Shown here piece by piece: positions 3,322 to 30,613 of a stretch of DNA of 32,680 nt. Every line of letters starts with the position of its first letter. Position 1 is the stretch's first letter. The notes under the pieces are model-generated. The model was not told the origin of the DNA. It worked only from the letters and a program-made list of their open reading frames with translations, and searched no databases. A program made the translations under genes and the position numbers. The stretch is from an uncultured Synergistales bacterium. Its GTDB lineage: Bacteria; Synergistota; Synergistia; Synergistales; Aminobacteriaceae. Location of the stretch: contig CALCQG010000093.1 in NCBI GenBank assembly GCA_937897575.1, forward strand, positions 1 through 32,680, in the 5' to 3' direction.

Positions 3322-3757
3322 ATGACGGAGTATGAGCGTTCCATCTTCACCCCGTCCGGCGTCTCTGCTTCCGATCTCAAGAGCGAAGCCGCGGAGGTTG
3401 CAGATGACCGCGGTGCGCAACCCGCGGGGGTGTACACGTTTCGGAGCGGATACTCTCCCCTGAGACGAGGTGTTGCAGGAAAGGACGGCCGGTGACCGGC
3501 GATTCTCCAGCGGAGAGAGTCTTCCTTTTTGTGTGGCGACTGGCTTGACGCTCCGGAAATGCCCGTCGGTCATACTCCTTGAGACAGGGTGAAAAGGGCG
3601 ACTCGCACTCTTCGCTCCCGCTCAACAGGTCACGGTCATCGTCCTGTTCGGCGGCTCGCTGCTGCCGCTCGCGGTCCATGGCACATTTGGCGTCCCTTCG
3701 CCGGGCGGTCGTGTGTCCTCTCGTTCTTCACGACGAAAGGTTGTACGTACGTCCTCG

Positions 3758-13322: not shown

Positions 13323-13618
13323 CCTTCGTATCGGAACAGGCCGCAGTCCATGACACAACACACCTTGGACTGAATGTCATCATCGAGGACGATGTGGAGA
13401 TCGCGGGGGCCGTGGAGATCGGGCACAACATGGTCCTCCGATCGGGCGTCCGGATCGGTGAGAACTCGAAGATACTGGACGGAACCGTTCTGAGGAAACT
13501 GCCGACCAAGACGTCCCTCTCCGCGACGACGGGGATAAAAACGTCTTTGCACTGTTTTGGCAAAGAATTCGGTAGTCTCCCGCTTGATACCGCCGGAACT
13601 TTGCTAGGTTTCATCTGA
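13319..13618 (+). pseudogene. Truncated hexapeptide-repeat (left-handed beta-helix) sugar N-acetyltransferase
   Basis: Hexapeptide repeats (LGLNVII, IGHNMVL, IGENSKI) and KLPTKTSLSATTG, then coding signal and GC break at about 13535; no acetyl-CoA-binding C-terminal half. ATGA overlap with Ldh2. Confidence 0.75.
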
Positions 13619-13650
13619 GGCTTTCCCCACACTACCAAGGATCAGCAACC
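13535..13650 (-). pseudogene. RelE/StbE-type toxin remnant
   Basis: Manual minus-strand translation VADPW*CGESLR*NLAKFRRYQAGDYRILC matches the RelE/ParE pattern DPR..G..L.G.L..FWRYRVGDYRI.C, with two in-frame stops; N-terminus lost. Confidence 0.75.
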
Positions 13651-13710
13651 CTTCGGCTGTGCCCATATGTTCCGCCTTACCTTTTCGGATGTCTAGGTTG
13701 TTCCACCTGC

Positions 13711-13866
13711 CTAAAGGCTTTGTTCATATGCAGCGACATCGAGTCCATGGCCGTCGAGGCATCGCTCCAACGTTTCACGCGTATATGAGCCTCGAAAACG
13801 ATCGGTCCGTTTCGACAGCGTTTCCTGATGTTTCTGTAATTTCTTGTCGAGACGCACGGCAAGCAT
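13711..13866 (-). pseudogene. Ribbon-helix-helix (CopG/RelB-like) antitoxin, degenerate
   Basis: SD GGAGAGGTG then ATG 13866: MLAVRLDKKLQKHQETLSKRTDRFRGSYTRETLERCLDGHGLDVAAYEQSL*, matching the MLAVRL...L.KRTGR....Y.REA.E..L pattern; upstream of the RelE remnant; TGcTATGCT extended -10 at 13894-13902. Confidence 0.72.
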
Positions 13867-13954
13867 TCACCTCTCCAATTTCCATTGAGACAAAGCATAG
13901 CAGAAATGCACTGATTACGGAAGAAAAAGCCGATACCTTCATCATGTCATAAGG

Positions 13955-13960
13955 TATAAT
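13955..13960 (+). promoter_or_regulatory. Putative -10 box for the rml operon, inside an imperfect palindrome
   Basis: TATAAT within TCATAagGTATaATACTATGA, about 110 nt upstream of rmlB. Confidence 0.4.
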
Positions 13961-14069
13961 ACTATGATCGTGTTCTTTATAAGTGGGTGTAAAAACTCGC
14001 AGCGTTGTTACCGTGAAACTGTACAGAACGCCACTTGTAAATAATTGTCAAAAGGAGGAATATACTTCA

Positions 14070-15125
14070 ATGAATTTCCTCATAACAGGCGGGTGTGGCT
14101 TTATCGGATCCAATCTTGTTAAGGCCGCTCTTGCATTAGGGTACTCGGTGGTCAACCTCGACAAACTCACCTATGCAGGCAATCTTTTCTCTCTTGCTGA
14201 CGTGGAGAATGCCCCCGGCTATACCTTCGTCCACGGTGACATATGCGATGGAGAACTTCTGGATGAATTATTCCGTGAGCACCAGCCCGACGGGGTCCTT
14301 CATCTCGCTGCTGAAAGCCACGTGGATCGATCCATCGATGGACCTGAGGCTTTCATCCAGACTAACATCGTGGGTACATTCCGCTTGCTTGAAGCCGCAA
14401 AGAAATACTGGAAAACTCTTCCCGAGAAAAAAAAGAACTCTTTCCGCTTCCTTCACGTCTCAACGGACGAAGTGTACGGCTCTTTAGGGCCCGAAGGCTT
14501 CTTTACAGAGAAGACCCCGTACGCCCCCAACTCGCCCTACTCGGCGTCCAAGGCTTCTTCTGACCACCTTGTGCGATCCTATTATCACACCTACGGTTTG
14601 CCCATCGTCACCACCAACTGCTCCAACAACTATGGGCCGTGCCAGTTCCCAGAAAAACTTGTGCCGCTCGTTCTCAACCGTGCGGTGAAAGGGGAGTCCC
14701 TTCCTGTATACGGAGACGGTATGAACATCCGAGACTGGCTCTACGTTGAGGACCACTGCAGCGCTCTGCTGACTGTTTTTGGAAAGGGGCGTCCGGGTGA
14801 GACCTATAACATTGGGGGAAACAGCGAGCGGACAAATATCCACATCGTCCGCACGCTTTGCGGTCTCCTCGACGAATTCCGCCCCCGGAAAGACGGCATG
14901 AAGTACGAAGAACAGATTGCCTTTGTCCCCGATCGCCCAGGCCACGACCGTCGCTACGCCATCGACGCGAGCAAGATAAAGAGCGAGCTCGGCTGGCAGC
15001 CTCAGGAAACCTTCGAGACTGGCATCCGCAAGACCGTCCTCTGGTACTTGAACAACAGCCGGTGGACCGAATCCATCCTCGACGGTACCTACCGGTGCGA
15101 ACGCCTCGGATTGGGAGGGAAATGA
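14070..15125 (+). CDS. rmlB: dTDP-glucose 4,6-dehydratase
   Basis: [67 protein letters not shown] before ATG 14070. Confidence 0.97.
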
Positions 15126-15126
15126 C

Positions 15127-15180
15127 TTGAAGGGCATTGTCCTTGCGGAGGGGCGGCAACTATCTACACTCCATAACTGA
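15127..15180 (+). pseudogene. rmlA: N-terminal stub of glucose-1-phosphate thymidylyltransferase
   Basis: TTG AAG GGC ATT GTC CTT GCG = MKGIVLA right after the rmlB stop with SD GGGAGG; frameshifted GGAAT..LHSIT follows (cf. [18 protein letters not shown] at 22912), then homology ends. Confidence 0.8.
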
Positions 15181-15454
15181 GACCGGTACGACCATTAATA
15201 ACTGAACAGGCTCGTCCTTGAGCTCCTTGTTGGTGTGCTTGAGTTGATCATTATGGTAACTTGTATGATCCATGTCTGTTTGGTGGCAACAGTTCCAATG
15301 GTAGAGAGATTATCGGGTATTCTGAGAATATTGCATTAACAACATTTTGATATGCACGAGATGGATTCGAAATGCGTAAATCGAAAAGACTCAGACTTGT
15401 TGGATGGGAACAGTTGCGGCTATTACTTAACATAATTTATATAGGAGAGAATAA

Positions 15455-16006
15455 ATGAATGTTTTAGAAACACCCCTTTCTGGATTGAAAGTTATCGAAC
15501 CACAAGTTTTTAAAGACAAGAGAGGCTTCTTTCTTGAGACTTGGAATTGGCAACGATACACTGAAGTCGGTATCAAGGAAAAATTCGTTCAAGATAACCT
15601 TTCATTTTCAAAAGGAGGAGTTGTTCGAGGATTGCATTATCAATATCCTCACACTCAGGGGAAACTGGTTTATGTTTTGCATGGAGAGGTATTTGATGTT
15701 GCTGTGGACATTAGAAAAGATTCTCCAACTTTTGGCAGGTGGGAGGGAGTTATTCTCTCTGGTGAGAATAAAAAACAATTTTACGTCCCTGCGGGATTCG
15801 CTCACGGTTTCTGTGTCCTTAGTGAAAGTGCTCTATTTGCTTACAAATGTACGGATATCTACGTACCAGAAGCTGAGGGGGGGATCCTCTGGAACGATCC
15901 GGAGATAGGAATAGAATGGCCGATTTCTAATCCTATACTCTCTCAGAAAGATGAAAGATACCCTCTCCTGAAAGACTGGATTACTCAAGGTATTCCTGAT
16001 TTTTAG
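15455..16006 (+). CDS. rmlC: dTDP-4-dehydrorhamnose 3,5-epimerase
   Basis: DKRGFFLET, FVQDNLSFS, RGLHYQ, GEVFDVAVDIR, GFAHGF, ILSQKD. Confidence 0.97.
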   Translation: MNVLETPLSGLKVIEPQVFKDKRGFFLETWNWQRYTEVGIKEKFVQDNLSFSKGGVVRGLHYQYPHTQGKLVYVLHGEVFDVAVDIRKDSPTFGRWEGVILSGENKKQFYVPAGFAHGFCVLSESALFAYKCTDIYVPEAEGGILWNDPEIGIEWPISNPILSQKDERYPLLKDWITQGIPDF

Positions 16007-16215
16007 GAACGATTGATGCTTGAAAAAAGAGATGCTAACTCTCCTTACTACGATCAAGATCAACAATAACTCAAATGTAACGGAGCATTACTAATGTATA
16101 CGCTCATTCCTCTGGGTAAGACAGGCGGATTTTTAAAAGATGCAAGAATGGCCTAAAAATGAAACAGGAGAAAGCTAATAACTGAAATTTTTTCTTCACG
16201 AAGGAGGAGTAGATT

Positions 16216-17358
16216 ATGGCAATCCAACTTTTTGTTCCAACATTCGATGTTGAAGCTTGTATCGAAGAGATTAGAGAATGCCTCGAAAAAGGATGGACTG
16301 GATTGGGATTCAAAACAGTACAGTTTGAAGAGGCGTGGAAAAAATACACCGGATTCTCCAATGCTCATTTCCTAAATTCAGCAACAGTGGGTTTAAATCT
16401 CGCCTTTGAAATTTTAAAAGAACAATATGATTGGTCTGAGGGAGATGAGGTGATTACCACGCCTCTGACGTTTGTTTCCTCAAACCATGCAATTCTTTTA
16501 TCAGGTTTAAAACCTGTTTTTGCAGATATTGATGCTTATCTCTGTCTTGATCCTGTTGATATAGAAAAGAAAATAACTCCGAAGTCAAAAGCGGTTTTAT
16601 TTGTGGGTTTTGGAGGAAACACCGGGCAATACGAACGAGTTGTAGAATTGTGTGTAAAAAACGGGCTGAAGTTGATAGTGGATGCAGCCCATATGTCCGG
16701 TACCCGTCTTAACGGTAAGATTCCTGGTGATGAAGCAGATGTTCTCGTTTATTCCTTCCAGGCTGTGAAAAACCTTCCTACAGCGGATAGTGGGATGATC
16801 TGCTTTAAAAATACTGATTTCGACACTATTGTCCGCAGAAAAACTTGGTTAGGGATTAATAAGGATACCTATGCGCGTTTTGCTAACGAAAATGCAACGT
16901 ACAAATGGAAATACGATGTCGAGTACGTAGGATATAAGTATCATGGGAATTCGATTATGGCAGCAATCGGTTTAGCACAGATGCCGCACCTTGACATTGA
17001 CAATGCCTATCGCCGACAGATTGCGGAATGGTACACGAAAGGTTTTGAAGAATATAGTGAGAAGATTAAAATAGTACCGATTCCTAAAGGGTGTGAACCG
17101 TCCCGTCATCTTTTTCAGATTATAGTTGAGGATAGAGATGGATTGATGGCTTATCTAAATAAGAATGAGATATATCCAGGTGTCCATTATACAGACAATA
17201 CCCAGTATAGAATGTACGCATATGCTAATGGGACATGCACAAAAGCTGCTTATGTAAGTGACCATGTCATCTCGCTCCCCATGCATCTGAGGCTCTCTTA
17301 CGATGACGTTCAATATGTCATCAAGACGATATTGGAATATGTCTGCAATAATGGATAG
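16216..17358 (+). CDS. DegT/DnrJ/EryC1/StrS family NDP-sugar aminotransferase
   Basis: NSATVGL, GDEVITTPLTFVS, DAAH, YSFQAVKNL (PLP lysine), ISLPMH; SD AGGAGG. Confidence 0.95.
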   Translation: MAIQLFVPTFDVEACIEEIRECLEKGWTGLGFKTVQFEEAWKKYTGFSNAHFLNSATVGLNLAFEILKEQYDWSEGDEVITTPLTFVSSNHAILLSGLKPVFADIDAYLCLDPVDIEKKITPKSKAVLFVGFGGNTGQYERVVELCVKNGLKLIVDAAHMSGTRLNGKIPGDEADVLVYSFQAVKNLPTADSGMICFKNTDFDTIVRRKTWLGINKDTYARFANENATYKWKYDVEYVGYKYHGNSIMAAIGLAQMPHLDIDNAYRRQIAEWYTKGFEEYSEKIKIVPIPKGCEPSRHLFQIIVEDRDGLMAYLNKNEIYPGVHYTDNTQYRMYAYANGTCTKAAYVSDHVISLPMHLRLSYDDVQYVIKTILEYVCNNG

Positions 17359-17881
17359 ATCCTCAAAGTCGGCTATAAAGATCCGACCAATTCGGTTGGA
17401 TGATACACATTACATTATAAGATGGCGAAATGATGAAAATGTAAAAAGAAATCTCTATTCTCAGTCTGATTTAACGGAAGCGCAACATCTTAACTGGTTC
17501 CATAATCAGATCACAACAGGTCGATGCAGTCAATTCATTATTGAAGAGAATTGTCTTGGCGGAAGACCGTTGGGTACGGTGTTCATTAAGAATATAGATA
17601 AAAAAAATCAAAAAGGTGAATTCGGTATTTTTATTGGTGAAGCATGGGGCAGAGGAAAAGGATATGCCAGCCTTGCAACTGCCCTTATCCTTGACTATGC
17701 GTTTAAAGAATTAAAGTTAAACCGCGTTTACCTCACAGTTTTTTGTGATAATTTGCCGGCGATAAAAGCATATGAACGGGTTGGTTTTGTAAGAGAGGGG
17801 TTGCTTAGGCAAGATTATCTTCGCAGCGATGGTTTTGTCGATGTGGTGTATATGGGTATAACAGCGGAATTATGGGATTGA
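17351..17881 (+). CDS. GNAT (RimJ/PseH-like) NDP-aminosugar N-acetyltransferase
   Basis: RWRND, EFGIFIGE...GKGYA, LNRVYL.V..DN..AIKAYERVGF..EG.LR; overlaps the aminotransferase stop. Confidence 0.88.
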   Translation: MDRSSKSAIKIRPIRLDDTHYIIRWRNDENVKRNLYSQSDLTEAQHLNWFHNQITTGRCSQFIIEENCLGGRPLGTVFIKNIDKKNQKGEFGIFIGEAWGRGKGYASLATALILDYAFKELKLNRVYLTVFCDNLPAIKAYERVGFVREGLLRQDYLRSDGFVDVVYMGITAELWD

Positions 17882-18284
17882 CAATGAAAAGGATCACTTC
17901 TGCATGGAAGCATTGCTTTGTCCATGGAGGTTGCTCTTTATTTAGAAACACCCTAAATGTAAAAAAACATATCGTTGTTTACACGAACCTTGTTTCTCTT
18001 GGAAAGGATCAGGAGGCGTAAGCGATCATGAATATCCACAAAAAAACCGGTCTCACTTCTCTTCTCTCTGAAGAGGAGTGAGACGCAAGACACCACAATG
18101 AGCACATCAAGGTCAGTGACTTGGACTTGGCCAATTTATATCACGTCTTCTGTCCTACGGTCTACAATATCCTTGCCCGCGGAAAAGCACGAATACTCAG
18201 TTCCACGCAGTGGAGGGTGCTGCCTTGAAAGATAGAAAGGACCTTGAAGAGCGATTAAAGAAGGGGGCGAAATAGCATAAGCGA

Positions 18285-18350
18285 TAACCGGCGATATGAG
18301 GTGAACCGAATCAGTCGCTTGTGCCGAACGAAGTGAAGGCGAATCAAGGT
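18285..18350 (+). other. Structured non-coding insert 1 (about 66 nt) within the IS481 transposase
   Basis: Separates the K-R-Y-N-K-like segment from YPG; closed by GATAACC (18283-89)/GGTTATC (18348-54); contains in-frame stops; exact limits ambiguous. Confidence 0.65.
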
Positions 18351-18464
18351 TATCCTGGGCAGATGGTCCGCGGCGATACGAAACGTCTTCCGCTTCTCAA
18401 GGGGCAGAGAACAAGTGATCCGAGAAAGTATCTCTTTCTAGCGGCGGATGACTTCAGCAGAGAG

Positions 18465-18580
18465 CCACTGATGGTAGATGATTGAAACGGTAGTATCGAC
18501 TCGTGTCAGTCACTATCTTGAGCGGAACGATGGGCCGAGTGAAGCGTGCAAATCGCAACCCCGAAAGGGGTAGCAAAGAA
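18465..18580 (+). other. Structured non-coding insert 2 (116 nt) within the IS481 transposase
   Basis: Separates DDFSRE from LYTAILPDK; hairpin 18473-18517 and GCaACCCC-GAAA-GGGGTaGC hairpin 18555-18574. Confidence 0.75.
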
Positions 18581-19132
18581 CTCTACACAGCCATTCTTCC
18601 CGACAAGACATCCGCCTCGGTTCGTCGCTTTCTGGACGACGTCTCGTAAGAAGTGTCCTACATCGTGGAGGTGTACTACACGGACAATGGGTGGAAGTAC
18701 ACCGATTCTCCTGACGCTCACACCTTCATAACGCAGCGCCGGGAGGCAGAAATAGAACAGAGTTTCGCCCGGCTCGAAACACCCCGGACGAACGAGAAGG
18801 CGGAGCGAGTTGTCCGGACAATTAGGGGGAGCTGTCTGAGAAGACAGAGTTTCAGTCGAGTGTTCATCGTAAGAATGAGTTGAGAAGGTTCGTGAACTGG
18901 CACCAGTGAATGAAACTCTGCAAGGGTATAGGGAAGTTGACGCTTGGGGAAAAGTGGCGAGAGTATCTTACCCTGAGAAACTGTAAGTAACACTCCGGAT
19001 TCTTACGCCCTAAATATAGGAAAATTAAAAAAAATTCTAAAATAAAGAGGGTAGGAATATAACCATAGTTGCACAACAATGATTTAAAACTTAAAGAATG
19101 CTGTAGTGAACACTTCTGTTTTTGAGGTGAAA

Positions 19133-20227
19133 ATGTATATATTTATATTTGGTATAACACTAGTTTTTTTTCTACTCAAATTTAAGCGCAATGGTGTAAG
19201 TATTGTTGACCCTTTTAGAGTTTCGATGCCCGGCGGACAATGCTTGGCTCATCTTCTAGTGGCTTTTTTTTTGATAGCGGTCATAGGGCTCCGAGGGATC
19301 GAGATAGGAGATGACACTCTCGTTTATCATTATAGATTTAACCTCTTGTTACATGGAGTTCAAGAAAGTACACAAAGATTTTTTTATATTGAAGGTATGG
19401 AATTCGGATATTACCTTTTTCAGAAATTCTCTTTGTCTTTGTCTGGGAATTTTTCTTTCTTGTTAATGCTTTCTGCTTTTTTAATCACGCTTCCAGTTAT
19501 TTTTGTGGTACATCGTTATTCACGAATTCCTCTTTTTAGTTATTGGATATTTTTAACATACGGTTTTTTCCTTGCATCAATGGCACTTATCAGACAGTCG
19601 ATTGCACTGGGTTTTTGCTTTTTAGCATATCATTTTATAGTACAACGGAAACTTTGGCTATTTTTGATATGTATAACAGCTGCTTTTTCTTTCCATATGA
19701 CGTCGATTGTTTTTCTGCCTTTTTATTGGTTGTCAAGAATCAAGTACAGATCATTTTATCCGGTAATTTTTTTACTGCTGCTTCTCACGGTCAATGCTTT
19801 ATTCTTTTTTACAATGGATGAAATTTTGCAGTGGGGAGCGAAATTCTCCAGAAATGTTTACGTAGTGACGGGAACATCCTCTTTTTTAAAGATATCTGTT
19901 TTCTTTGTTTGTTCGATGCTATTGTGCGTCTTTTTCACCGGACAATATTTCAATAGCGACATCATTTTAAAAACAAGTTGGTATTCTGTCGCAATATATG
20001 TAGCCCCGTTATACGCCACTGCAATGAGTCCCGCTCTAGAGAGATTATTCTTGTATTATAAATTACCAATAATTTTGCTCCTACCAAATGTTGCTGCACG
20101 CATTGAAAGCAAGGCGTTACGCAGATTGTTTATGCTCTTCTTTGTTGCAATGGGTTTTTATATGTATTATCGAAATTTGTTCGGGTATGATTTACATTAT
20201 TACCCTTATAAGTTCTTTTGGGAATAA
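19133..20227 (+). CDS. wzy: EpsG-family / Wzy polysaccharide polymerase
   Basis: Very hydrophobic, AT-rich; GLR..IGDDT..Y, EFGY, IRQSIA, FH.TS motifs of the EpsG family; ATG 19133 after GAGGTG. Confidence 0.85.
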   Translation: MYIFIFGITLVFFLLKFKRNGVSIVDPFRVSMPGGQCLAHLLVAFFLIAVIGLRGIEIGDDTLVYHYRFNLLLHGVQESTQRFFYIEGMEFGYYLFQKFSLSLSGNFSFLLMLSAFLITLPVIFVVHRYSRIPLFSYWIFLTYGFFLASMALIRQSIALGFCFLAYHFIVQRKLWLFLICITAAFSFHMTSIVFLPFYWLSRIKYRSFYPVIFLLLLLTVNALFFFTMDEILQWGAKFSRNVYVVTGTSSFLKISVFFVCSMLLCVFFTGQYFNSDIILKTSWYSVAIYVAPLYATAMSPALERLFLYYKLPIILLLPNVAARIESKALRRLFMLFFVAMGFYMYYRNLFGYDLHYYPYKFFWE

Positions 20228-20231
20228 ATAT

Positions 20232-21674
20232 ATGAACAAAATCACGGGGAAAGTATTCGCTCAGAACGCAATTTGGAAATTCCTAGAACTATTTGGTGCA
20301 CAGGGCATTACACTTATATTAGCGGTGATATTGGCGCGTATCCTGGCTCCTGGAGACTATGGGATTATTTCGTTAACGATGATTTTCGTTTCTTTTTCGG
20401 ATATTTTGGTTCAGGGCGGTTTTTATACTGTTCTGGTTCAAAAAAAAGAGGTAGCTGATGCAGATTATTCTGCGGCGAACTATTTAAGTTTGATATTTGC
20501 GTTCTTATTATATAGCGCGAACTTTTATTTTTCCTCAATTATCGCGAAATATTATACTATTCCATTGCTAGAGAGCGTACTGAAAACCGTAGCAGTGACA
20601 TTGTTTTTTAACGCTTTCAGTGTAGTCCTTTCAGCGCGTTTGGTGAGGGGATTACAGTTTCAAAAGCTTTTTTATGTTCGTATGTTAAGCGCTGTCATTT
20701 CAGGTATTCTAGGAATATGGCTCGCTTATTCAGGTTATGGAGTGTGGTCGTTAGTATGGCAGAAGTTCGCACAACAACTTCTGTTCGCTCTTCTTCTGGT
20801 GGTAGTGACGGGCAAAATTCCTATTATGTTTTTCCCTGTAGAACGTGCAAAAGTATTGATGGCGAACGGATTGCAGGTATTATCGGGGGTAATGGTTGCC
20901 TTTTTGGGTGACAGCCTTTACGGAGTGACTGTGGGGAAGGCATATTCGCCGGAGAGTTTGGGCTTTCTCGACAAAGGAGATCAGCTCCCAAAGGGACTGA
21001 TTCTGAATGCAAACGCAGCTATTGTAGGTGTAACACTTCCTACTCTGTCTTTTTATCAAGGTGATTTAATTTTATTAAAGAGAGCCGTGCGCCGAATTAT
21101 TAGAGTATCGTGTTATGTCATTTTTCCTTTATCAATCGGTTTAGCGGCGTCTTCGAACTTGTTGATACGAATATTACTGACAGAGAAATGGATTTATTCA
21201 ACGCCAGTCATGCAATTATCGTGCTTTTTTTATGCTACGGCAACGATTTTACAGATACAAACACAGGTTTTTTATTCGATAGGGAAAAACGGAGTACGTA
21301 CCGCTCTTGAAAGCTTCAAGTTAATTATTACTATTGTCCTCGTGCCATGTGCTGTATTTATTCTTGGTTTCCATATTTACTTGTTAATGGCATTGAAAGT
21401 TGGGATTTCTATTGGAATGATAATGATCACTGCTCTTTTTAGTAAAAAATATATAGATTATAACTTGGCGGAACTATTTTCTGACGTTGTTCCGGCTTTT
21501 TGTCTTTCGGTCTTAATGGTAATACCAGTGATATCTATCCCGTTGTTTGGGTTTCCTGACCTGGTTACGCTTCTTTTGGAAGGAATTACCGGCATACTCG
21601 TTTATGTTTTTCTTTCAATACGATTTAATGTTTCTGCTTTTTTTGAACTTAAAGAACTTCTAAAAAGAAACTAA
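20232..21674 (+). CDS. wzx: WzxC-like polysaccharide flippase
   Basis: ILARILAPGDYG, GYGVWSLVWQ, ILLTEKW motifs; about 480 aa, multi-TM. Confidence 0.9.
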   Translation: MNKITGKVFAQNAIWKFLELFGAQGITLILAVILARILAPGDYGIISLTMIFVSFSDILVQGGFYTVLVQKKEVADADYSAANYLSLIFAFLLYSANFYFSSIIAKYYTIPLLESVLKTVAVTLFFNAFSVVLSARLVRGLQFQKLFYVRMLSAVISGILGIWLAYSGYGVWSLVWQKFAQQLLFALLLVVVTGKIPIMFFPVERAKVLMANGLQVLSGVMVAFLGDSLYGVTVGKAYSPESLGFLDKGDQLPKGLILNANAAIVGVTLPTLSFYQGDLILLKRAVRRIIRVSCYVIFPLSIGLAASSNLLIRILLTEKWIYSTPVMQLSCFFYATATILQIQTQVFYSIGKNGVRTALESFKLIITIVLVPCAVFILGFHIYLLMALKVGISIGMIMITALFSKKYIDYNLAELFSDVVPAFCLSVLMVIPVISIPLFGFPDLVTLLLEGITGILVYVFLSIRFNVSAFFELKELLKRN

Positions 21675-21709
21675 CATAAAACTAGCGTGGGAAAGGAGGG
21701 AGCAGACTC

Positions 21710-22915
21710 GTGACGAATGTTCTTGTAGAATATGAAAAATTAAACCCCTCATTTCTGCTCGTGAAAGAGATATTTGATGCTTTCGCATCAAAGTATGATA
21801 CGAAGTTCAGATATTTACGTTCGAGTATAATTTCCAGCCATGATATCGCATGGAGTGACATTGTAATTTCGATAAGAGGGTTTGTTAATCTTTCTTTGGA
21901 TATTTGTTTGGAAGCAAAAAGAAATGGAAGAAAACATATTCTTTTTATTGATGATGATTTGTTAAATTTACCCAAAGATTACAGGGTGTTGGCAGACAGA
22001 AAGAGAGCATTAAGGGGAATTTTAGATCAAACAGATTTAATAATGGCCGTCAATCCTATTTTGGGTAAGAAATACGGTAATCTGACCAAATCAAGGAAAT
22101 ACACGTTAATTAATGTAATTGAGGGTAGTTTTATAAGACCAAGGCCTGAGAAGAAATGCGGAGGAAAGACAAAAATAGTTTATGCTGCAAATAAGGGGCA
22201 CGTAAAAATTTTTGATAGGTATATACTTCCCCTACTTCCTGCCCTCTGTAAGGAATTCAAAGATAAAATAACAATGACGTTTATTGGTGTTAAACCTAAT
22301 TTGTCAATATTTGAGAACGAGATTGAGATACGATATTTACCGACGATGGCCTTTGAAAAATATAGGCAATATATGCAGGATAACAAGTTTGACATAGGGC
22401 TTGCTCCAATAAATAACGATGAGTTTTCTAATTGTAAATATTATAATAAATTTATCGAATATACTTTAGCGGGTGTTATGGGTATTTACACAAAATGTCC
22501 ACCGTACTCCTTGATTATTGAAGACAGGGTTAACGGTATATTATGCGAAAACACCGTTGAAGATTGGCTGAATGCTTTTAAAGAAGCGATAAATAATCTT
22601 GAAATGCGAAAGTTTTGCGTGATGAATGCCCAGAGATTGCTTCGCGAAAATTTTAGTAAAGAAAAAGTTTTAAGATCAATAGCCATTCAAATTCCTGATC
22701 TTATTCAATACAAGGCCAAAGTTGTAAGAAATAAAAGGATCTGGGGATTAAAAAAAATTAAGTATGTTTTTTTTCAACTTAAAGAAAACCTTTTTTTTAC
22801 GCTCATTCACTTGGTGGAGGATGGTCTAATCATCACATGTAAAAAAGCCTACCAGCATATTGTTGATACAAAAGAGTACAATAAGGGCAATGTAAAGAAG
22901 GAGGAGAGGATGTGA
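21710..22915 (+). CDS. Putative GT-B (GT4-like) glycosyltransferase
   Basis: FIDDDL, DIGLAP...F..CK..NKFIEY..AG..GI, NGIL motifs; GTG start after AGGAGG. Confidence 0.75.
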
Positions 22916-23796
22916 AGGGAATAATTTTAGCAGGTGGAGCTGGGACGAGATTGTACCCTTTGACTATGGTGACTTCAAAACAACTTCTGCCTGTTTATGA
23001 TAAACCAATGATTTATTATCCCTTGTCGACATTGATGTTGGCTGACATAAAGGATATATTGATTATTTCGACTCCGACTGACCTGCCGAATTTTGAACGC
23101 TTGCTCGGGGATGGGCGTCACATTGGCATCAATCTTTCTTATGAAGTGCAACCATCGCCAGATGGTCTCGCACAAGCATTTATTATAGGTGAAAGATTTA
23201 TTGGGCAGGATTGCTGCGCTATGATATTAGGAGACAACATATTTTATGGCGGTGGATTGGTCAGCAAACTGCAGAAAGCCGTAGAGAATGCCAAACAGGG
23301 ATATGCTACGATCTTTGGATATTATGTAAGCGATCCTGAGCGTTTTGGAATAATGGAATTTGATGCAAAATGGAATATCCTTTCAGTGGAAGAGAAGCCT
23401 GAATATCCTAAATCAAATTATTGCATTACGGGTTTATATTTTTACGATAATAAAGTAGTGGATTATGCGAAGAAAGTTGAACCTTCAGCGCGAGGAGAAC
23501 TTGAAATAACGACGTTGAACGATATCTATCTAAAAAAAGAAAAGCTAAAAGGGCAGGTTCTCGGGAGAGGGTTTGCTTGGTTGGATACAGGGACGATCGA
23601 CAGTCTTAATGATGCGTCTGATTTTGTTCGTATGATAGAAAAAAGGCAAGGGGTTAAAATCTCTGCGCCTGAAGAAATAGCCTATCGAAATGGCTGGATC
23701 AATAAGGAGAAATTGCTGGAGTCTGCTGAACGCTATGGGAAATCTCCATACGGGGAGCATTTGAGAAAGGTCGCTGAGGGAAAGTTCATTTATTAA
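22912..23796 (+). CDS. rmlA: Glucose-1-phosphate thymidylyltransferase
   Basis: [57 protein letters not shown]. Confidence 0.98.
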
Positions 23797-24024
23797 TCAA
23801 TCGACAATTATGCATGGTTTATTGTGCTTGTGCGCGTTATTAATAAATACAGAAAAACCATCAGACCTGATGCTGTTCTTGACTTTTTTACGCTGAGTGG
23901 TGATGTGAATGTCCTTAAATCAAGGGAGATTCTTAGGAAATAAAAAACCAGAAAATAAAATGTAGTTTCCATTTGATTGTGCCTATTTCATCCACTTTTA
24001 GCAGCGCAATAAAGGAGGGAAACA

Positions 24025-24987
24025 ATGACAATAGTAGGCAACGTTTTTTTTATTCGACCAAACAATAATAACGATTTCACTTTCGAAAATATAAGGAAAT
24101 CGGGATACCAGATAGATGTTCCCTACAAGGGGAACTCAATATTTTTCAGGATTATTAGAGAGATATGGTTTAGATTGAATCTGCCGTTTCAATTTCTTTG
24201 GTATAACAATGATGTTAATAAAACGGATTGTAACACGTTGATTGTATACGATCCTTTGATAGTGCCAGAGTACCTTGTTTGGTTAAGAAAAAAAAACTTA
24301 AAAAAAAGGATAGTTTTGTTTTACGGTAATCCTGTTAACAGAACTATTAACCCCGATTTAATACCTGATGATTGTTGCGAAAAATGGTCTTGGGACCTAG
24401 GGGATTGCGAAAATTATGGAATGAATTATGTCAGGTCGGGTTATTGGGAAGGTTTGAAGGTAACAAAAAAGGTTCTTTTATATGACATTGTATTTGTTGG
24501 TCGTGATAAAGGAAGAGCGAAAGATTTATTAGAGCTTAAAAAAATTTTTCGAAAAATGCGATTGAAAATAAAGATGCATATAGTTGCCGATAGACGTTAT
24601 CAAAGATATTTTAAACCGTTCTATGGCAGAATTCTTAAGTATGATGAGATTCTGGGTCTTCTTAGCCAAAGTCGAGCGGTACTGGACATCGTCCAAGAGA
24701 ACCAATCAGGTCTCAGTGCGCGCGCGATGGAGTCTTTATTCAATGAAATTAAGTTAATAACGGATAATAGGAACATTGTTAAATATGATTTTTATGACAA
24801 GGAGAATGTGTTTATTATAGATCAAGATGACATTGCGCTATTGCCAGAATTCTTAAGGCGACCCTATAAGAAGATAGATCATGAAATTGTTAGTTTGTAC
24901 ACATTTGAAAATTGGATTAAGAAGATATTGAGTACAGAGGGCACTATGAAAAAAAAAGCACAACTATTGCGAAATACCAAAACGTAA
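24025..24987 (+). CDS. Putative polysaccharide glycosyltransferase (GT-B-like)
   Basis: SD AAGGAGG; YDIVFVGRDKGR, LDIVQENQSGLSAR..E......KLITDN motifs seen in polysaccharide-locus proteins; specificity unknown. Confidence 0.65.
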   Translation: MTIVGNVFFIRPNNNNDFTFENIRKSGYQIDVPYKGNSIFFRIIREIWFRLNLPFQFLWYNNDVNKTDCNTLIVYDPLIVPEYLVWLRKKNLKKRIVLFYGNPVNRTINPDLIPDDCCEKWSWDLGDCENYGMNYVRSGYWEGLKVTKKVLLYDIVFVGRDKGRAKDLLELKKIFRKMRLKIKMHIVADRRYQRYFKPFYGRILKYDEILGLLSQSRAVLDIVQENQSGLSARAMESLFNEIKLITDNRNIVKYDFYDKENVFIIDQDDIALLPEFLRRPYKKIDHEIVSLYTFENWIKKILSTEGTMKKKAQLLRNTKT

Positions 24988-25034
24988 GTACGAGGTCCAC
25001 TTTCTTCAAGTCAGTAATGTTGTTGCAGTGATTT

Positions 25035-26060
25035 TTAAGATTTCAGATACCAGTCAGAAGCTTTTCGCAACCCATCTTGTATGAAGAATTGAGGATGGTA
25101 TCCGAGCAATTCGCGGCCCTGAGAAATATCAGCGAGGGAATGACGGATGTCACCCTGCCGAAAGTCCTCGTATTTGGGTTCAATGATCTCCGCTTCAGGG
25201 TGTTTTTTTGAAACTTCGTCCCGAATAAGGGTCACTAGTTTATTGAGGGTGGTTTGGCAACCGCATGCTACGTTATAGGTGCGGTTCCATGCACTCTCAT
25301 TTGAGGTTGTCGCCGCCAGAATGTTCGCTTGGACGACATTTTCTACATAGCAAAAATCTCTGCCTGTCTCGCCGTCGCCGTAGATCAGGGGTTGTTTGCC
25401 ATTTGAGAGGGCTTCGAACCACCTTGGGATTACGGCTGCGTAGGGGCCGTTCGGGTCCTGTCTCGGGCCGAATACATTGAAGTATCGCAGCCCGATGGAC
25501 CTGAAACCGTAGCACCTAGCGAAAATTTGAGCAATCTGTTCATTCTGAAGTTTTGTAAGGGCGTACGGAGAAAGGGGATTACCGATGCGATCCTCCTTTT
25601 TGGGAAGATTTGGTTCGTCCCCATAAACGGAACTCGAAGAAGCGTAAACAAATGATTCAACCCCTGCGTCCCGAGCCGCCAGGATCATATTGAAGAAGCC
25701 GTTGGCATTCACGGAGTAGGTCGAAAGAGGATCCTTAAGTGACCGTGGTACCGAACCGAGTGCTGCCTGGTGGAGGATCATTTCTTTCCCTTCGCAGGCC
25801 TTCCGGCAGGCCTCCAAGTCCCGAATGTCGCCAGAAATCAGGTGAAAACGGGCCGCATTCTCAGTGGTAGTTTTTAAGAGTGCGTCATCAATGTTTTGCT
25901 GCGATCCTGTCGCGAAGTTGTCCAACCCGGTTACGGTTTGCCCGAGAGCAAGAAGGTTCTCAACAAGATGGCTGCCAATGAAGCCAGCTGCTCCGGTGAC
26001 GAGCCATGACTTTGGTTTCATTTTGAAGGTTTCTTTTCTCTTTTCGTAGGTCTTGTTCAT
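25035..26060 (-). CDS. wbpP: UDP-GlcNAc(A) C4-epimerase, WbpP/TviC-like
   Basis: [64 protein letters not shown]. Confidence 0.9.
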
Positions 26061-26061
26061 T

Positions 26062-27360
26062 TTACAAGCTCCAGTATGTAATGGTTTCCGGAAACTGTTC
26101 TGGTGAGAAGAGGGACTTTACATCAACAAAGACGCCGTCGTTGTTTCTTAAGTGTGATATTAGAGTTGATGCACCCTGTTTGATATATTCTTCGTGCCCT
26201 ACAGCAAGTATAAGGGCATCCAAATCTCTGATTTCTTCAAAGGATGAGAGGGAAATACCGTATTCCCTGAATGCGTCATCAGGGGCCACGAGGGGATCAT
26301 GCACCAGTGGCTCAATGCCGTACTGTCTCAGCTCTGCAGCGATGTCCGGGACTCTGCTGTTGCGCAGATCTGGAACATCTTCCTTGAAGGTGAGTCCAAG
26401 AATTGCTACTCTGGAAGAGGCAATACTACTGTTTCCTTTAGCGCAGAGCAGCTTCACTGTCTTCTCAGCGATGGTTTTACCCATGCTGTCGTTGATCCTT
26501 CGTCCCGACAGAATGACCTGGGGAATGTAACCCATTTCCTCAGCTTTGTAGGTAAGGTAATAGGGGTCCACTCCGATGCAGTGTCCTCCGACAAGGCCAG
26601 GGGTAAAGGGCAGGAAGTTCCATTTTGTCCTCGCAGCAGCAAGGACGTCGGCTGTCCGGATTCCAAGTTTGTCGAAGATCAAGGCCAGTTCATTCATGAG
26701 AGCGATATTGAGGTCCCGCTGCGTATTTTCGATAACTTTTGCAGCCTCTGCAACTTTGATTGAGGGTGCTCGATGGATTCCAGCTTTTACTACTTGTCCG
26801 TATATTGACGCGAGTATGTCCAGGGTTTCCTCATCTTCACCCGCAACGATCTTGGTAATTGTCTCAAGCCTGTGTTTTTTATCTCCCGGATTGATTCTTT
26901 CAGGAGAATAACCAATTTTGAAATCTATTCTTTGTTTGAATCCTGAGGCATTAGCAAGAACGGGACCACAGATATCTTCTGTGACTCCCGGATAGACCGT
27001 AGATTCATAGCAAATTATGGCATGTTTTTTCATATGTCTACCCACTATCTCTGAGGCGTGGAGAATAGGTGTCAAGTCAGGGCGGTGAGCTTGATCGATG
27101 GGGGTGGGTACTGCGACGATGAAGACGTCAATTTTTTTCAGTATTGAAGGGTCAGCACTAACTTCCAAAGAAGTAGCATAGAGATCTTTGGCCTCAATTT
27201 CCCCAGTTTTGTCGATACAAGCTTTGAGATCTTCTACTTTCTTTTGGTTTATATCAAAACCTACAACATTAGGAAAAACCTTCGCGAAAGAGATGGCCAG
27301 TGGCAATCCAACGTAACCGAGGCCAATAATAGCGATGCGTTTTTCTTTCTCTAAAGTCAT
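26062..27360 (-). CDS. wbpO: UDP-N-acetylhexosamine 6-dehydrogenase, WbpO/TviB-like
   Basis: GLGYVGLP, ESTVYPG, YSPERINPGD, KVIENTQRD, GLVGGHCIGVDPYYL, FKEDVPDLRNS. Confidence 0.92.
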   Translation of the reverse strand: MTLEKEKRIAIIGLGYVGLPLAISFAKVFPNVVGFDINQKKVEDLKACIDKTGEIEAKDLYATSLEVSADPSILKKIDVFIVAVPTPIDQAHRPDLTPILHASEIVGRHMKKHAIICYESTVYPGVTEDICGPVLANASGFKQRIDFKIGYSPERINPGDKKHRLETITKIVAGEDEETLDILASIYGQVVKAGIHRAPSIKVAEAAKVIENTQRDLNIALMNELALIFDKLGIRTADVLAAARTKWNFLPFTPGLVGGHCIGVDPYYLTYKAEEMGYIPQVILSGRRINDSMGKTIAEKTVKLLCAKGNSSIASSRVAILGLTFKEDVPDLRNSRVPDIAAELRQYGIEPLVHDPLVAPDDAFREYGISLSSFEEIRDLDALILAVGHEEYIKQGASTLISHLRNNDGVFVDVKSLFSPEQFPETITYWSL

Positions 27361-27441
27361 AAGGCACCTCTTTAATTAAAAAATATTTTAACTACAAAAT
27401 AAGTACGCGGCATTTCGGTCAATTAATTGATTTGGAAAAAG

Positions 27442-28641
27442 CTATTGATTTTTGCCAAATAGCGTTTTGTAAACATCTAGTGTTTTAGAAACAACTTTTT
27501 CTTCTATAAAATCCGAACAAACGATCTCCCTGCCCCGTTGTCCCATCTTCTCAATTTTCGCATGCGATTCAAGGAGCAGTCTCATTGCATGGGATAGAGC
27601 TTCCGCATTATGAACAGGCACAAGAAAGCCGTTGGTATTGTGACTGACAATTTCTTTGCATCCGGGAATATCGGTCGTAACTATAGGACGCCCACAAGCT
27701 GCTGCTTCGAGAAGGACTTTCGGAAGTCCTTCATGGTAGGATGGTAGCGCAATAATCGTGGTTTTGGCAAGAACCTCAGGCATCTCATATGGTTCTTTAG
27801 CTCCCCACCATTCCAAGTATGAGTGCGAAGCCGTCCATTCGGTTATAGTCTCGCAGCTGATTGCACTGGGATTTTCGTCGTCTGCAGGACCGACAAGGAC
27901 AAATTTGGCATTGGGAAATTCCGGATGTAATATCTCGGCGGCCCGGATGAACTCAGCTACTCCCTTATCCCAGAGCATACGAGCGGGCAGCATAATGACT
28001 GGGTTTTCAGGAAATGGAGAAGGAATGAATTTGGAGCAGTCGACGCCAGAACCACGAATCAGGACCATTTGTTCCTTTCTTATCAAGCCAGCGTTCAACA
28101 TAATCTCCATATCCGATGGATTCTGAAATATGGTGATGCTCTTCGGGTTGCCCAATGCCATTTTATAAAAACGGGAAACGGCATGTCTTAGAAAAGCAGC
28201 TTTCCTTTTTTGGGAGAAGACATATCCTAGTCCGCTGATTGCATTGACGACGGGCCAAGCATTAAAAAAACGCGATAAAAGAGAACCGTACAGTACCGGT
28301 TTTATAGAGACGGTATGAAGCAGATCTGGTTTCGTTCTTTTTAAAAAATTAAAGATCGCATGAACTGTGATCGATTCTTGGAATATGCTTGTGCCCTGTC
28401 GTGAGAAAGGGAGAGGAACGAAGTGAATTCCTTCTTTTTCTAAGGTTACACCCTTCCCAGTATCGCCTGCAGCAACAATAACCTCTGCTCCAGCATCCCT
28501 GGCAGCTCTGGCTAGAGGGAGTCTGTGGGAAATAAAGAACCAGTCGACATTGACTAAGTAGACAATTTTTTTTGAAGCTAAGAAGGAGAGATCCGTAGTC
28601 TCTTTTCCTTCAGTTGTGAATAAATGTGCGTTGTAGGTCAC
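27442..28641 (-). CDS. Glycosyltransferase family 4 (CapM-like)
   Basis: NVDWFFISHRLPLA, KPVLYG, IFQNP.D, RMLWDKG, PSYHEGLPKVLLEAAACGRP. Confidence 0.93.
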   Translation of the reverse strand: MTYNAHLFTTEGKETTDLSFLASKKIVYLVNVDWFFISHRLPLARAARDAGAEVIVAAGDTGKGVTLEKEGIHFVPLPFSRQGTSIFQESITVHAIFNFLKRTKPDLLHTVSIKPVLYGSLLSRFFNAWPVVNAISGLGYVFSQKRKAAFLRHAVSRFYKMALGNPKSITIFQNPSDMEIMLNAGLIRKEQMVLIRGSGVDCSKFIPSPFPENPVIMLPARMLWDKGVAEFIRAAEILHPEFPNAKFVLVGPADDENPSAISCETITEWTASHSYLEWWGAKEPYEMPEVLAKTTIIALPSYHEGLPKVLLEAAACGRPIVTTDIPGCKEIVSHNTNGFLVPVHNAEALSHAMRLLLESHAKIEKMGQRGREIVCSDFIEEKVVSKTLDVYKTLFGKNQ

Positions 28642-29588
28642 TCTTCAGGTATCTTTCTCTCAGTTTGTTTTTGTAGCCCCCAAAGCCAAGACGCAGTTGT
28701 CTCTATTCCGGTGGGAAGGGTATAGGGCAACGTAATGGAAAGAAGTTTCTTAACTCGTTCATTTGAAACAACGAGGGAACGAGTCAGTTTTTTTATGGTA
28801 TCACTCTTTCCTAAAAAATTCCCCAGTTTCTCCAACACTATTGATGAACAAGGAAAAAGCCTAGGAGTTTTCCCCAAAGCTAAGGCCATAATGTGTATCA
28901 GTTCTGATGTGGAAACTGCTTCATTGTCTGCGATATGGAAAATACGGTCTATTGAAGCGTGTGATTCTACAGCAATTTGTATGGTATATGTGAGGTTATA
29001 TACATTAAGCATGCTCCTAGCATTTTTTACTTTGGCAAAAGGTAATGGGATGCCTTTTTGTACTGCGTTCATGAGTTTAAGAAAATTGCCTTTGACTCCT
29101 GGACCGTAAATCAGCGGAGGTCTTAATATTAAAGTCTCTATTGATCGTGAGTTCTTAAGAATCAATTCTTCAGCTTCTCTTTTTGTAATGCCATAACAGT
29201 CCTCGGGGTTACATGGACTTTCTTCTGTAAATGATTGATCAATTGGAGTTTCTTCACCCACGGCTTTAATGGAGCTAAGGTAGACGAATCTTTTTACGCC
29301 ATAGTCTTTGGAGGCTTCGAGTAATGCTCTCGTGATGCCGACATTGACGCGCCGATAAGTTGATAATGCAGATGGATCTCTTGCGTCCGCAGCGTGAGTT
29401 TTAGCAATCAGGTGAATAACTGTTGCGCACTCTGCTTTCTCAAGCGCTGTCCTCCATGATTCAACAGAATAGGGATCGCAAAGGTCACCTTTGCTCACGG
29501 AAGAGATTTCGTATCCTTTTTTTAACAAATGGTTCTTAAGATGTTGTCCGACGAAGCCTGTCATCCCTGTGATAAAGACTTTTTTCAT
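28638..29588 (-). CDS. NAD-dependent epimerase/4-reductase (WbpV/WbpK-like)
   Basis: MKKVFITGMTGFVG, YLSSIKAVGE, YGITK, RPPLIYGPGVKGNF, NARS; ATG 29588 overlapping the upstream stop. Confidence 0.9.
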   Translation of the reverse strand: MKKVFITGMTGFVGQHLKNHLLKKGYEISSVSKGDLCDPYSVESWRTALEKAECATVIHLIAKTHAADARDPSALSTYRRVNVGITRALLEASKDYGVKRFVYLSSIKAVGEETPIDQSFTEESPCNPEDCYGITKREAEELILKNSRSIETLILRPPLIYGPGVKGNFLKLMNAVQKGIPLPFAKVKNARSMLNVYNLTYTIQIAVESHASIDRIFHIADNEAVSTSELIHIMALALGKTPRLFPCSSIVLEKLGNFLGKSDTIKKLTRSLVVSNERVKKLLSITLPYTLPTGIETTASWLWGLQKQTERKIPEE

Positions 29589-30613
29589 GTTACTCTTCCT
29601 TCCCTCTCTCGTGCTCCGGAGGAAAAACGGTAATAGAGTAGCATCCATATTACCCCAAGTAGGCCATAGGTTGCTATAAACAGTAGAAAAACAAATTGTG
29701 ATAAAAAGAATGTTGCAAGCGAGATGCAGAAACTTAACGAGAGAGTGCTGGTCGTTACAGCAGCATGTTTGAAACCCGCTTTTAAGAACTGATGGTATAG
29801 ATGATCTCGATGGGCTTCTGACAGGCGTTTCCGCTGTCTTGCTCGCATAATCAGAGTAAGGGTGGCGTCCACTACGAAGACAGAGATCAGTACGGCCCAA
29901 ACGAGGAGGGACATTGTATTTGTGTTTTCACTGTAGAGGGCGAAGCAGAAGAAAGCGAAGCCTAAGAAACCGCTACCTGTGTCCCCCATGAACACTTTTG
30001 CAGGTGACCAATTCCAGAGCAGAAAGCCGAGAACTAAGGCAGCCAATGTGAATAGCGCAAAAGAGGTGGAAGTCCCTAGTGTAAGAAAGGCGCCTGCAGA
30101 TGCAACCAGAACAGCTTCTCCTGCAGCGAGGCCATCGACGCCATCCATGAAATTATAGAGATTGATCAGCCAGATACCTCCTATAAGACCGAGAACATAT
30201 CCAAAAGCACCGAGAGAAACGTGATATTTCCCCATGAAAAGAGAGGGAAGCCCTCCATTGTTGAAAAGGGTCCACAAGACGGCCAGTGCGTGGACTAGGA
30301 GACGTGTTCGGGCTGGCAAGTTCTTTCGATCATCGATCCATCCAATAGTCGCTATCAGTGTGCCTCCCCCGAGAAGGGAACTCCACAAAGGGGCTTGCTG
30401 AGGATAGGAGAGTGCAAAAAAGCAGATGGAGAGGAGAAAAAGAGATACAAATACGATCCCGCCGCCCCTTGGAGTGGGAATCGTATGGGAGCTTCGCATA
30501 TTAGGGATGTCGAGAATGGCATTCTTTCTGGCATAACCGATGTACAGTTTTGTCCCGAGAAAAGAGGCGAGAAAAAGGCCAAAATATATTGTCACAGAGG
30601 AGAGGAGAGTCAT
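29585..30613 (-). CDS. wbpL: Undecaprenyl-phosphate HexNAc-1-phosphate transferase (WbpL/WecA family)
   Basis: DIPNMRSSH.IPTPRGGG, GWIDD, NLYNFMDGVDG, FMGDTGS, AHRDHLY; ATGA overlap with wbpM. Confidence 0.92.
   Translation of the reverse strand: MTLLSSVTIYFGLFLASFLGTKLYIGYARKNAILDIPNMRSSHTIPTPRGGGIVFVSLFLLSICFFALSYPQQAPLWSSLLGGGTLIATIGWIDDRKNLPARTRLLVHALAVLWTLFNNGGLPSLFMGKYHVSLGAFGYVLGLIGGIWLINLYNFMDGVDGLAAGEAVLVASAGAFLTLGTSTSFALFTLAALVLGFLLWNWSPAKVFMGDTGSGFLGFAFFCFALYSENTNTMSLLVWAVLISVFVVDATLTLIMRARQRKRLSEAHRDHLYHQFLKAGFKHAAVTTSTLSLSFCISLATFFLSQFVFLLFIATYGLLGVIWMLLYYRFSSGAREREGRVT

Follow-up and report, generated by a model that had tools for sequence, protein, structure and literature searches.

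Palindromic repeats inside protein-coding genes are familiar from the Rickettsia palindromic elements, which lie in frame and are translated. A different kind of interruption is bypassed by the ribosome in phage T4 gene 60, in which the open reading frame contains a non-coding gap of 50 nt with a hairpin at its start and a stop codon at the take-off site. Closest to the sequences described here are repeats of the REP/BIME type. As portrayed in sections of a survey of GTAG- and CGTC-type repeats, REP and BIME are extragenic palindromes that form mosaic arrays in both orientations, mainly 3′ of genes (PMC3733652). The same sections state that the TAG end of GTAG-tagged repeats often serves as the stop codon of the upstream gene, that the stems of GTAG and CGTC repeats include G-T pairs and GA mismatches, that some REP-type copies are intragenic, with two inserts in uvrA of O. 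terrae, and that there are CGTC-type families without a dedicated transposase (PMC3733652). Modular small interspersed repeats are also represented by BOX, RUP and SPRITE of Streptococcus pneumoniae, of which SPRITE resembles a Rho-independent terminator, according to parts of Croucher et al. 2011 (PMC3049150).

We analyzed a 32,680-nt stretch of DNA, hereafter the window; it corresponds to contig C93 in a draft genome of 2.37 Mb (173 contigs, 96% complete). It contains the relic of an insertion sequence (IS) whose transposase gene is split by two inserts (Table 1). We conclude that these inserts are most probably fossil units from a lineage-specific, REP/BIME-like family of intergenic palindromes and that they sit in an IS that would have been disabled once and multiplied later.

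The relic is flanked by a GNAT acetyltransferase gene on one side and an EpsG-family gene on the other, both named by Pfam. Its right end was placed at 19006, exactly after which the contig of one paralog departs, and its termini are worn inverted repeats (...GTTGTTTACA, read from the paralog alignment). Given the 8-bp target duplication, this copy to all appearance arrived by transposition. As to class, the transposase of an intact relative (genome G070) matches Pfam rve with 51 bits, the domain starting at residue 97, and rve_3 with 70 bits; against the IS481 model NF033577 it scores 190.9 bits, which is below the 224-bit equivalog cut-off yet the best match by far. At the left end of the IS there is a long palindrome (window ~17975-18020; C1 copy, L002:1626-1675; TTTACACGAACC..hairpin..GGTTCGTGTAAA), which overlaps the inverted repeat directly 5′ of the transposase start and may shield the start site against read-through transcripts. 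It gives a weak partial match to the covariance model R1 described below (8.1 bits, E 0.2), probably by chance. On a larger scale, the window has a low-GC island at ~13500-30000, where most 500-nt bins have 33-49% GC and one has 57%, between flanks of 54-68% GC. Its genes include a DegT-type aminotransferase, the GNAT acetyltransferase, the EpsG-family gene and a flippase-type gene, and the island looks like an exchangeable surface-polysaccharide cluster enclosing the IS relic.

Table 1. Positions of the IS relic, its two inserts and associated features in the window.
Feature	Position	Strand	Basis
Target-site duplication, left copy, 8 bp, CCCTAAAT	17951..17958	.	identical to 19008-19015
Decayed IS481-type insertion sequence, ~1.05 kb	17959..19006	+	aligned with paralogs and the G006 copy
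Transposase pseudogene with several stops and frameshifts	18028..18990	+	three-frame translation
Insert 1, putatively a single worn repeat unit, short hairpin at its apex	18279..18341	+	family profiles, alignment
Native IS sequence CAGCAGAGAG, with a worn repeat at 18571-18580	18455..18464	+	three copies in alignment
Insert 2, a ~70-nt repeat unit followed by ~45 unmatched nt	18465..18580	+	R1, intergenic-only HMM, fold
Target-site duplication, right copy, CCCTAAAT	19008..19015	.	read from the window sequence

To compare the transposase gene with its relatives, we searched 261 genomes of the order with the transposase protein and found it in eight, the own genome among them. Outside copies with open frames occur in G070 (285 aa) and, twice, in G055 (275 aa each); the copy of G006 has one frameshift, and additional copies are present in G197 and G068. 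In the DNA alignment the outside copies (5/5; G006, G070, G055, G197 and G068) run unbroken through both sites, with the uninterrupted motifs KRYNK(S/N)YPG and DD(F/Y)SREL(Y/F)AAILPD. The second-site motif of the relatives, DD(F/Y)SRELYAAILPDK, is contiguous in intact or near-intact copies. Because all five outside copies read through without interruption, both stretches are true insertions, and the statement in the initial annotation that KRYNKxYPG and DDFSRELY are normally contiguous was correct. Frame 0 of the window reads ...LEERLKKGAK*HKR*...YPGQMVRGDTKRLPLLKGQ...DDFSREPLMVDD*, with KELYTAILPDK... in another frame, and three-frame translation agrees exactly with the peptide pieces given there. 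Contigs from an independent study match the window at 18075-18892 with 0 differences; thus, the inserts are not an assembly artefact. No insert-less variant was found in the contigs of four DNA runs, contigs being apt to drop rare variants, and the sole joints in them came from paralogous IS copies. All four insert-bearing copies are dead, and the open copies (G070, and G055 twice) are all without inserts. Otherwise intact IS481 homologs with inserts at these codons, for which the initial annotation had proposed a search, were looked for, and the open copies carry neither insert.

The own genome holds further decayed IS copies on contigs C82, C1, C91, C140 and C85. Its seven transposase matches are all short broken pieces, with a longest open frame of 96 aa and stops in 5/7, and an intact helper copy of the IS was not found in this 96%-complete, 173-contig assembly. 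Four decayed paralogs are 68-77% identical in the backbone, and insert 2, at 74-80% identity among copies, has diverged about as much as these flanks. In the tree the own copies group together with 100% support in a star-like pattern, and their terminal branches measure 0.14-0.29 substitutions per site; the placement of C91 has a support of 38%, at which the tree does not decide between an earlier split and a loss of insert 2. About 75% of the substitutions among the copies are transitions, with a mild GC-to-AT excess. We considered hypermutation as the source of their divergence and rejected it, the substitution spectrum being ordinary. Taken as a whole, the inserts would be older than the copying burst of an already disabled IS, and we infer a single origin for each of them. 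Two of the relics have surroundings worth recording. The C82 relic (L001:1708-1961) adjoins three tRNA genes, Lys-CTT, Arg-TCG and His-GTG. The C91 relic ends after ~14471 and is followed by unrelated low-GC DNA (L003 ~1070-2100; C91:14470-15500), in which an open frame carries a ..TSPPFPL.. motif typical of DNA methyltransferases; the IS tail seems to pick up again further along.

Insert 2 lies directly after the second catalytic-Asp motif, DDFSRE. Alignment to the uninterrupted relatives yields the 116 nt initially reported, and the size across copies is 116-118 nt. The insert is present at an identical position in 3/4 own copies (C93, C82 and C1) and in 0/5 outside copies; C91 has a clean unbroken junction at this site. 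A left (L) motif, TAGATGATTG, lies at 18475-18484, a right (R) motif, GTGTCAGTCACTATC, at 18503-18517, and a CCCC-GAAA-GGGG hairpin in the final ~45 nt. There is an in-frame TGA seven codons into the insert. On the + strand it folds with -39.5 kcal/mol (z -3.3), which 0/200 shuffles equal, and on the - strand z is -1.0. In C93, C82 and C1 the insert is flanked by the 10-nt direct repeat CAGCAGAGAG, a repeat that would reflect either duplication of the target or microhomology with the L motif.

A profile of insert 2 led us to intergenic DNA on C5 and, more weakly, to both ends of C70. Modular repeat arrays are present on C5, C27, C67, C70, C79, C88 and C116. Units of 60-110 nt are chained in both orientations directly 3′ of stop codons, each in the order left motif TAGCAGAYGACC, variable apical hairpin, right motif GTGTCRGNYRCTAT, short second hairpin and next left motif. 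The left and right motifs pair with each other, the pairing being interrupted by a small internal loop; the apical hairpin often has a GC stem between an A-run and a T-run, resembling a two-way terminator, and the second hairpin has the form CC(C)GAG...CGAGG(G). From these arrays we built an HMM (seed, 15 intergenic units) and the covariance model R1 (seed, 14 units), keeping the IS inserts out of both; the calibration of R1 was short and its E-values are rough. R1 has 34 matches at ~10 loci in the own genome, 31 of them outside IS copies and these mostly in arrays right behind gene ends.

The predicted stem is supported by covariation. RNAalifold on the 14 seeds gave 19 pairs, 13 of them with compensatory changes, and one stem pair is U-A in seven seed units, C-G in seven and broken in none. 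Among 13 distinct units from ten other genomes, 92.1% of cells pair and 13/19 pairs show compensatory changes, in an alignment (A2) that was fitted to R1 and is biased toward the structure; 0/500 shuffles reach the pairing of these outside units, and controls with slid partners pair at 28-44%. With regard to insert 2 itself, the intergenic-only HMM gave genome-wide E-values of 1.7e-5 (C1), 0.013 (C93) and 0.17 (C82), and R1 gave 1e-4, 0.0023 and 0.012 for the same copies. When R1 was run on the four IS loci alone (10.5 kb), insert 2 matched at E 4.5e-7, 1e-5 (window) and 5.5e-5, the window match spanning 18466-18558. These profile and covariance searches, which the initial annotation had recommended, thus turned up intergenic homologs outside the IS and an intergenic-only model that recognizes insert 2 in three copies, with strong stem covariation. 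On this evidence we would firmly place insert 2 in the intergenic repeat family. Its last 45 nt stand apart: searched with a profile at E<=50, the own genome shows no homolog of them beyond the three IS copies. By eye, the second half of the insert had seemed similar to a stretch of the C116 array, a candidate that we dropped because of that blank result.

R1 matched 32/107 genomes and 12/20 genera of this bacterial family. In a sample of the phylum it matched 16/57 genomes of the family as compared with 0/93 genomes from 12 other families, a result that doubles as a control for the specificity of R1. Copy numbers within a genome can be considerable, BLAST with a single locus giving 53 matches in G076 and 36 in G008. 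In the own genome, 6/8 arrays begin with a left motif that contains the stop codon of a long open frame lying upstream, and G009 likewise has a stop codon inside the left motif. One orthologous spacer measures 23 nt in G080, ~120 nt in G076 and ~400 nt in G077, which indicates that arrays come and go; the site in this genus (g9) is empty in G080, and the filled forms are complex arrays. The g9 arrays (G077, L049:1240-1640) have, alongside the L/R units, other short tandem modules, among them a repeated CATCCCGAGGTGTTCGCCAACTTGTCT and CTCGGGATGACAGGAAAA. The same unit lies 3′ of the same outer-membrane-type gene (..SLIWTF end) in two genera (G009, L059:3034-3148; G068, L055:1501-1623), suggesting that some units are old and kept in place and not recently moved; the second hairpin of these two units differs by fully compensated changes. 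In the window, positions 3392-3484 give a weak match to the intergenic-repeat HMM (E 0.087 genome-wide), with an GCAGATGACC start, near the end of an open frame, and are possibly another worn unit.

We also looked for an enzyme that might accompany the repeats. The Y1 transposase domain PF01797 had 0 matches in the own genome and was present in 3/5 relatives tested; at six Y1 loci of three relatives, ~1.7-3.4 kb each, there was no R1 match better than E 0.7. Two inverted units of G009 had suggested a REPtron, which we rejected, as the enclosed gene encodes a 488-aa secreted-type protein and not a transposase. Rfam 15 gave nothing but sub-threshold noise for the inserts (17900-19100, E<=10) and for eight intergenic arrays (E<=1).

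Insert 1 is assigned less firmly. It lies where the HTH region meets the rve domain and is found in 4/4 own copies covering the site and in 0/5 outside copies of the alignment. The initial annotation gave its length as 66 nt; we measured 63 nt in the window and in one other copy and 64 nt in C91 and C1, the boundary being uncertain by 2 nt. The insert opens with an L motif (AGC-GATAACC in the window, AGCAGATGACC in paralogs) and contains the R motif TCAGTCGCT; direct flanking repeats amount to AA at most. A TGA occurs at a matching position of the insert in C91 and C1, in frame with the upstream coding sequence, and likewise in the other two copies after allowing 1-nt indels; in copies keeping the frame the insert brings a +1 shift. 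In C1 the apex of insert 1 holds an additional, nested unit. As for the fold, insert 1 is no better than shuffles (z 0.06), so that the claim that both inserts fold on the + strand stands for insert 2 and falls for insert 1. A profile made from the four IS copies and searched in 4.7 Mb had family units as its two best non-IS matches (C79:241-195, E 0.12; C5:90011-90074, E 1.2), both aligned left motif to right motif in the family register. Across the four IS loci (10.5 kb in total), R1 found insert 1 in C91 (E 0.016), C82 (0.21) and C1 (0.22) and did not find the window's own insert 1 at E<=10. The intergenic-only HMM, run genome-wide, found it in C91 (E 0.28) and C1 (E 1.1). Since R1 misses the window copy, the membership of this copy depends on its paralogs and on weak E-values; insert 1 probably belongs to the intergenic repeat family.

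Given these assignments, the two inserts are related, as initially proposed, but the relationship is visible only through the profiles of the larger family: in direct pairwise comparison 142/2000 shuffles score at least as high as the inserts do. Part of the second similarity originally quoted (..AATC) is native IS sequence. The broader statement that two clean insertions of related structured sequence are not random decay is supported by the uninterrupted relatives together with the family profiles.

What the inserts might do, or might have done, for the IS was the attractive part of the initial proposal, which saw in them a built-in RNA or ssDNA device or a mini-intron. That they are a regulatory device of the IS, whether miniature introns, self-cleaving RNAs or bypass elements, with removal or skipping needed to make transposase, could draw on the folding of insert 2, which beats shuffled folds on the mRNA strand only (z -3.3 vs -1.0), on the fact that a ribosome hopping from the first AGA-GAG to the second would restore ...FSRE/LY... 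exactly at insert 2, and on the multiplication of the IS after it gained the inserts. However, Rfam at E<=10 returned noise and no family match, insert 1 has neither matching take-off and landing codons nor a fold (z 0.06), at insert 2 the presumed take-off site is not immediately followed by a stop, and the same sequence family occupies intergenic arrays unrelated to the IS. Self-splicing introns are far larger than 63 and 116 nt. Like the gap of T4 gene 60, insert 2 is a non-coding hairpin gap in an open reading frame with matching codons flanking it, but the gap would be 106 nt as compared with 50, the take-off stop is missing, insert 1 has none of these features and no functional copy exists. 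The TGA and frameshift of insert 1, and the insert-bearing copies, all four dead while the open ones are insert-free, weigh in the same direction, and we consider such a device extremely improbable; read in this way, the sequences speak against a mini-intron, ribozyme or built-in expression device, for which we see nothing in support. Two more specific candidates were also dropped: a hammerhead-like GATGA..GAAAC..GUC, whose GAAAC lies within the variable hairpin and whose stem II is missing, with Rfam silent, and a CRISPR-repeat reading (ATTGAAAC), which gave sub-threshold Rfam noise only. A related idea is that insert 2 alone was a reversible switch, a hairpin between in-frame 10-nt repeats (AGA-GAG ... 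AGA-GAG) that governed whether the transposase was on or off. If replication slipped or a ribosome hopped from one repeat to the other, the DDFSRE/LY junction would be restored exactly, as found in C91. If true, units of this hairpin family could enter and exit cleanly and act as an on/off governor of transposase genes, and the multiplication of the element after insertion would be explained. We hold this to be very improbable, as plain target duplication or left-motif microhomology would account for the same facts.

The suggestion that a small element targets this IS proved right as to a small repeated element and wrong as to the target. In its full form, an IS-parasitic MITE specific to the IS481 lineage would have inserted independently at the same codons in each copy. 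The same two sites are indeed filled in several diverged IS copies, both sites have a CARCARGAG-like stretch, similar to the left motif of the units, that could serve as a target, and C1 bears its additional unit within insert 1. Against specificity, 31/34 genome matches are outside IS copies, and the IS family is without inserts in seven other genomes, of which G068, G070 and G006 nonetheless hold the repeats. Against independence, the insert divergence is similar to the flank divergence, and the insert-1 copies are mutually close (E 1e-18) as compared with the best intergenic unit (E 0.12) and have oddities in common, as one event predicts. We regard this possibility, too, as improbable. To coding extensions, that is, in-frame peptide loops encoded by repeats as in the Rickettsia palindromic elements, we give next to no credence: insert 1 is 63 nt in two copies, and REP-type repeats within expressed genes are documented in sections of the repeat survey (PMC3733652), but insert 1 has a conserved in-frame TGA and 64 nt in C91 and C1, and insert 2 has 116-118 nt and its own in-frame TGA after seven codons.

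Returning to fossil units of an intergenic repeat family as the preferred reading, we suggest the following course of events. A single IS481-type element would have received copies of two repeat units in its transposase gene, the first at the junction of the HTH and catalytic domains and the second directly after the DDFSRE motif. Insert 1 would have supplied the in-frame TGA and the frameshift, and because of these the gene would have been dead from its arrival. An IS killed in this way was still copied several times, from which we infer that it was mobilized in trans, most likely via an intact helper copy since gone from the assembly. All IS copies would afterwards have decayed neutrally, and the inserts at their present positions would do nothing. 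The units may have been copied in by an enzyme that recognizes hairpins, or by template switching where the sequence resembles the left motif.

How does the family compare with known repeats? Within what the cited sections of the survey describe (PMC3733652), the present family resembles REP/BIME in forming dispersed two-orientation mosaics near gene 3′ ends, in stop donation and in intragenic copies, whereas its units are longer (60-110 nt as compared with 20-40 bp for REP) and combine a conserved base stem with a variable apical hairpin. Unlike the unpaired terminal GTAG of REP, the TAG here pairs with GCTA in the consensus structure; TAG is retained in 11/14 seed units and the full GTAG in 5/14. 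Also unlike RAYT-linked REP, there is no RAYT link in the own genome or at the six Y1 loci of three relatives. The family would thus work like REP/BIME but with a paired TAG and no RAYT link, and we compare it with that class and do not count it as a member. With SPRITE, as presented in parts of Croucher et al. (PMC3049150), it has in common that many apical hairpins are terminator-like, but it differs from BOX, RUP and SPRITE in its unrelated sequence, in its different phylum and in the L/R stem that encloses the terminator-like hairpin. Like the Rickettsia elements, the inserts are palindromic repeats within a coding gene; unlike those in-frame translated repeats, they bring stops and a frame shift, and the host gene is dead. 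As regards MITEs, the L/R motifs are inverted repeats and insert 2 is flanked by the 10-nt direct repeat, insert 1 by AA at most, and we identified no parent IS for a MITE origin of the units.

The word Synergistetes is absent from the main text of the GTAG/CGTC survey (PMC3733652), and full-text literature yielded nothing that pairs Synergistetes with ‘repetitive extragenic palindromic’ or ‘miniature inverted-repeat’. We did not find the repeat family in print, and its description will be useful for annotating genomes of this group. The analysis also removes a tempting false lead: no new class of intron or bypass element is present. The common inserts provide a natural marker by which a disabled IS can be seen to have been copied at least four times, and the family would be one more case of REP-type repeats spreading without a dedicated transposase.
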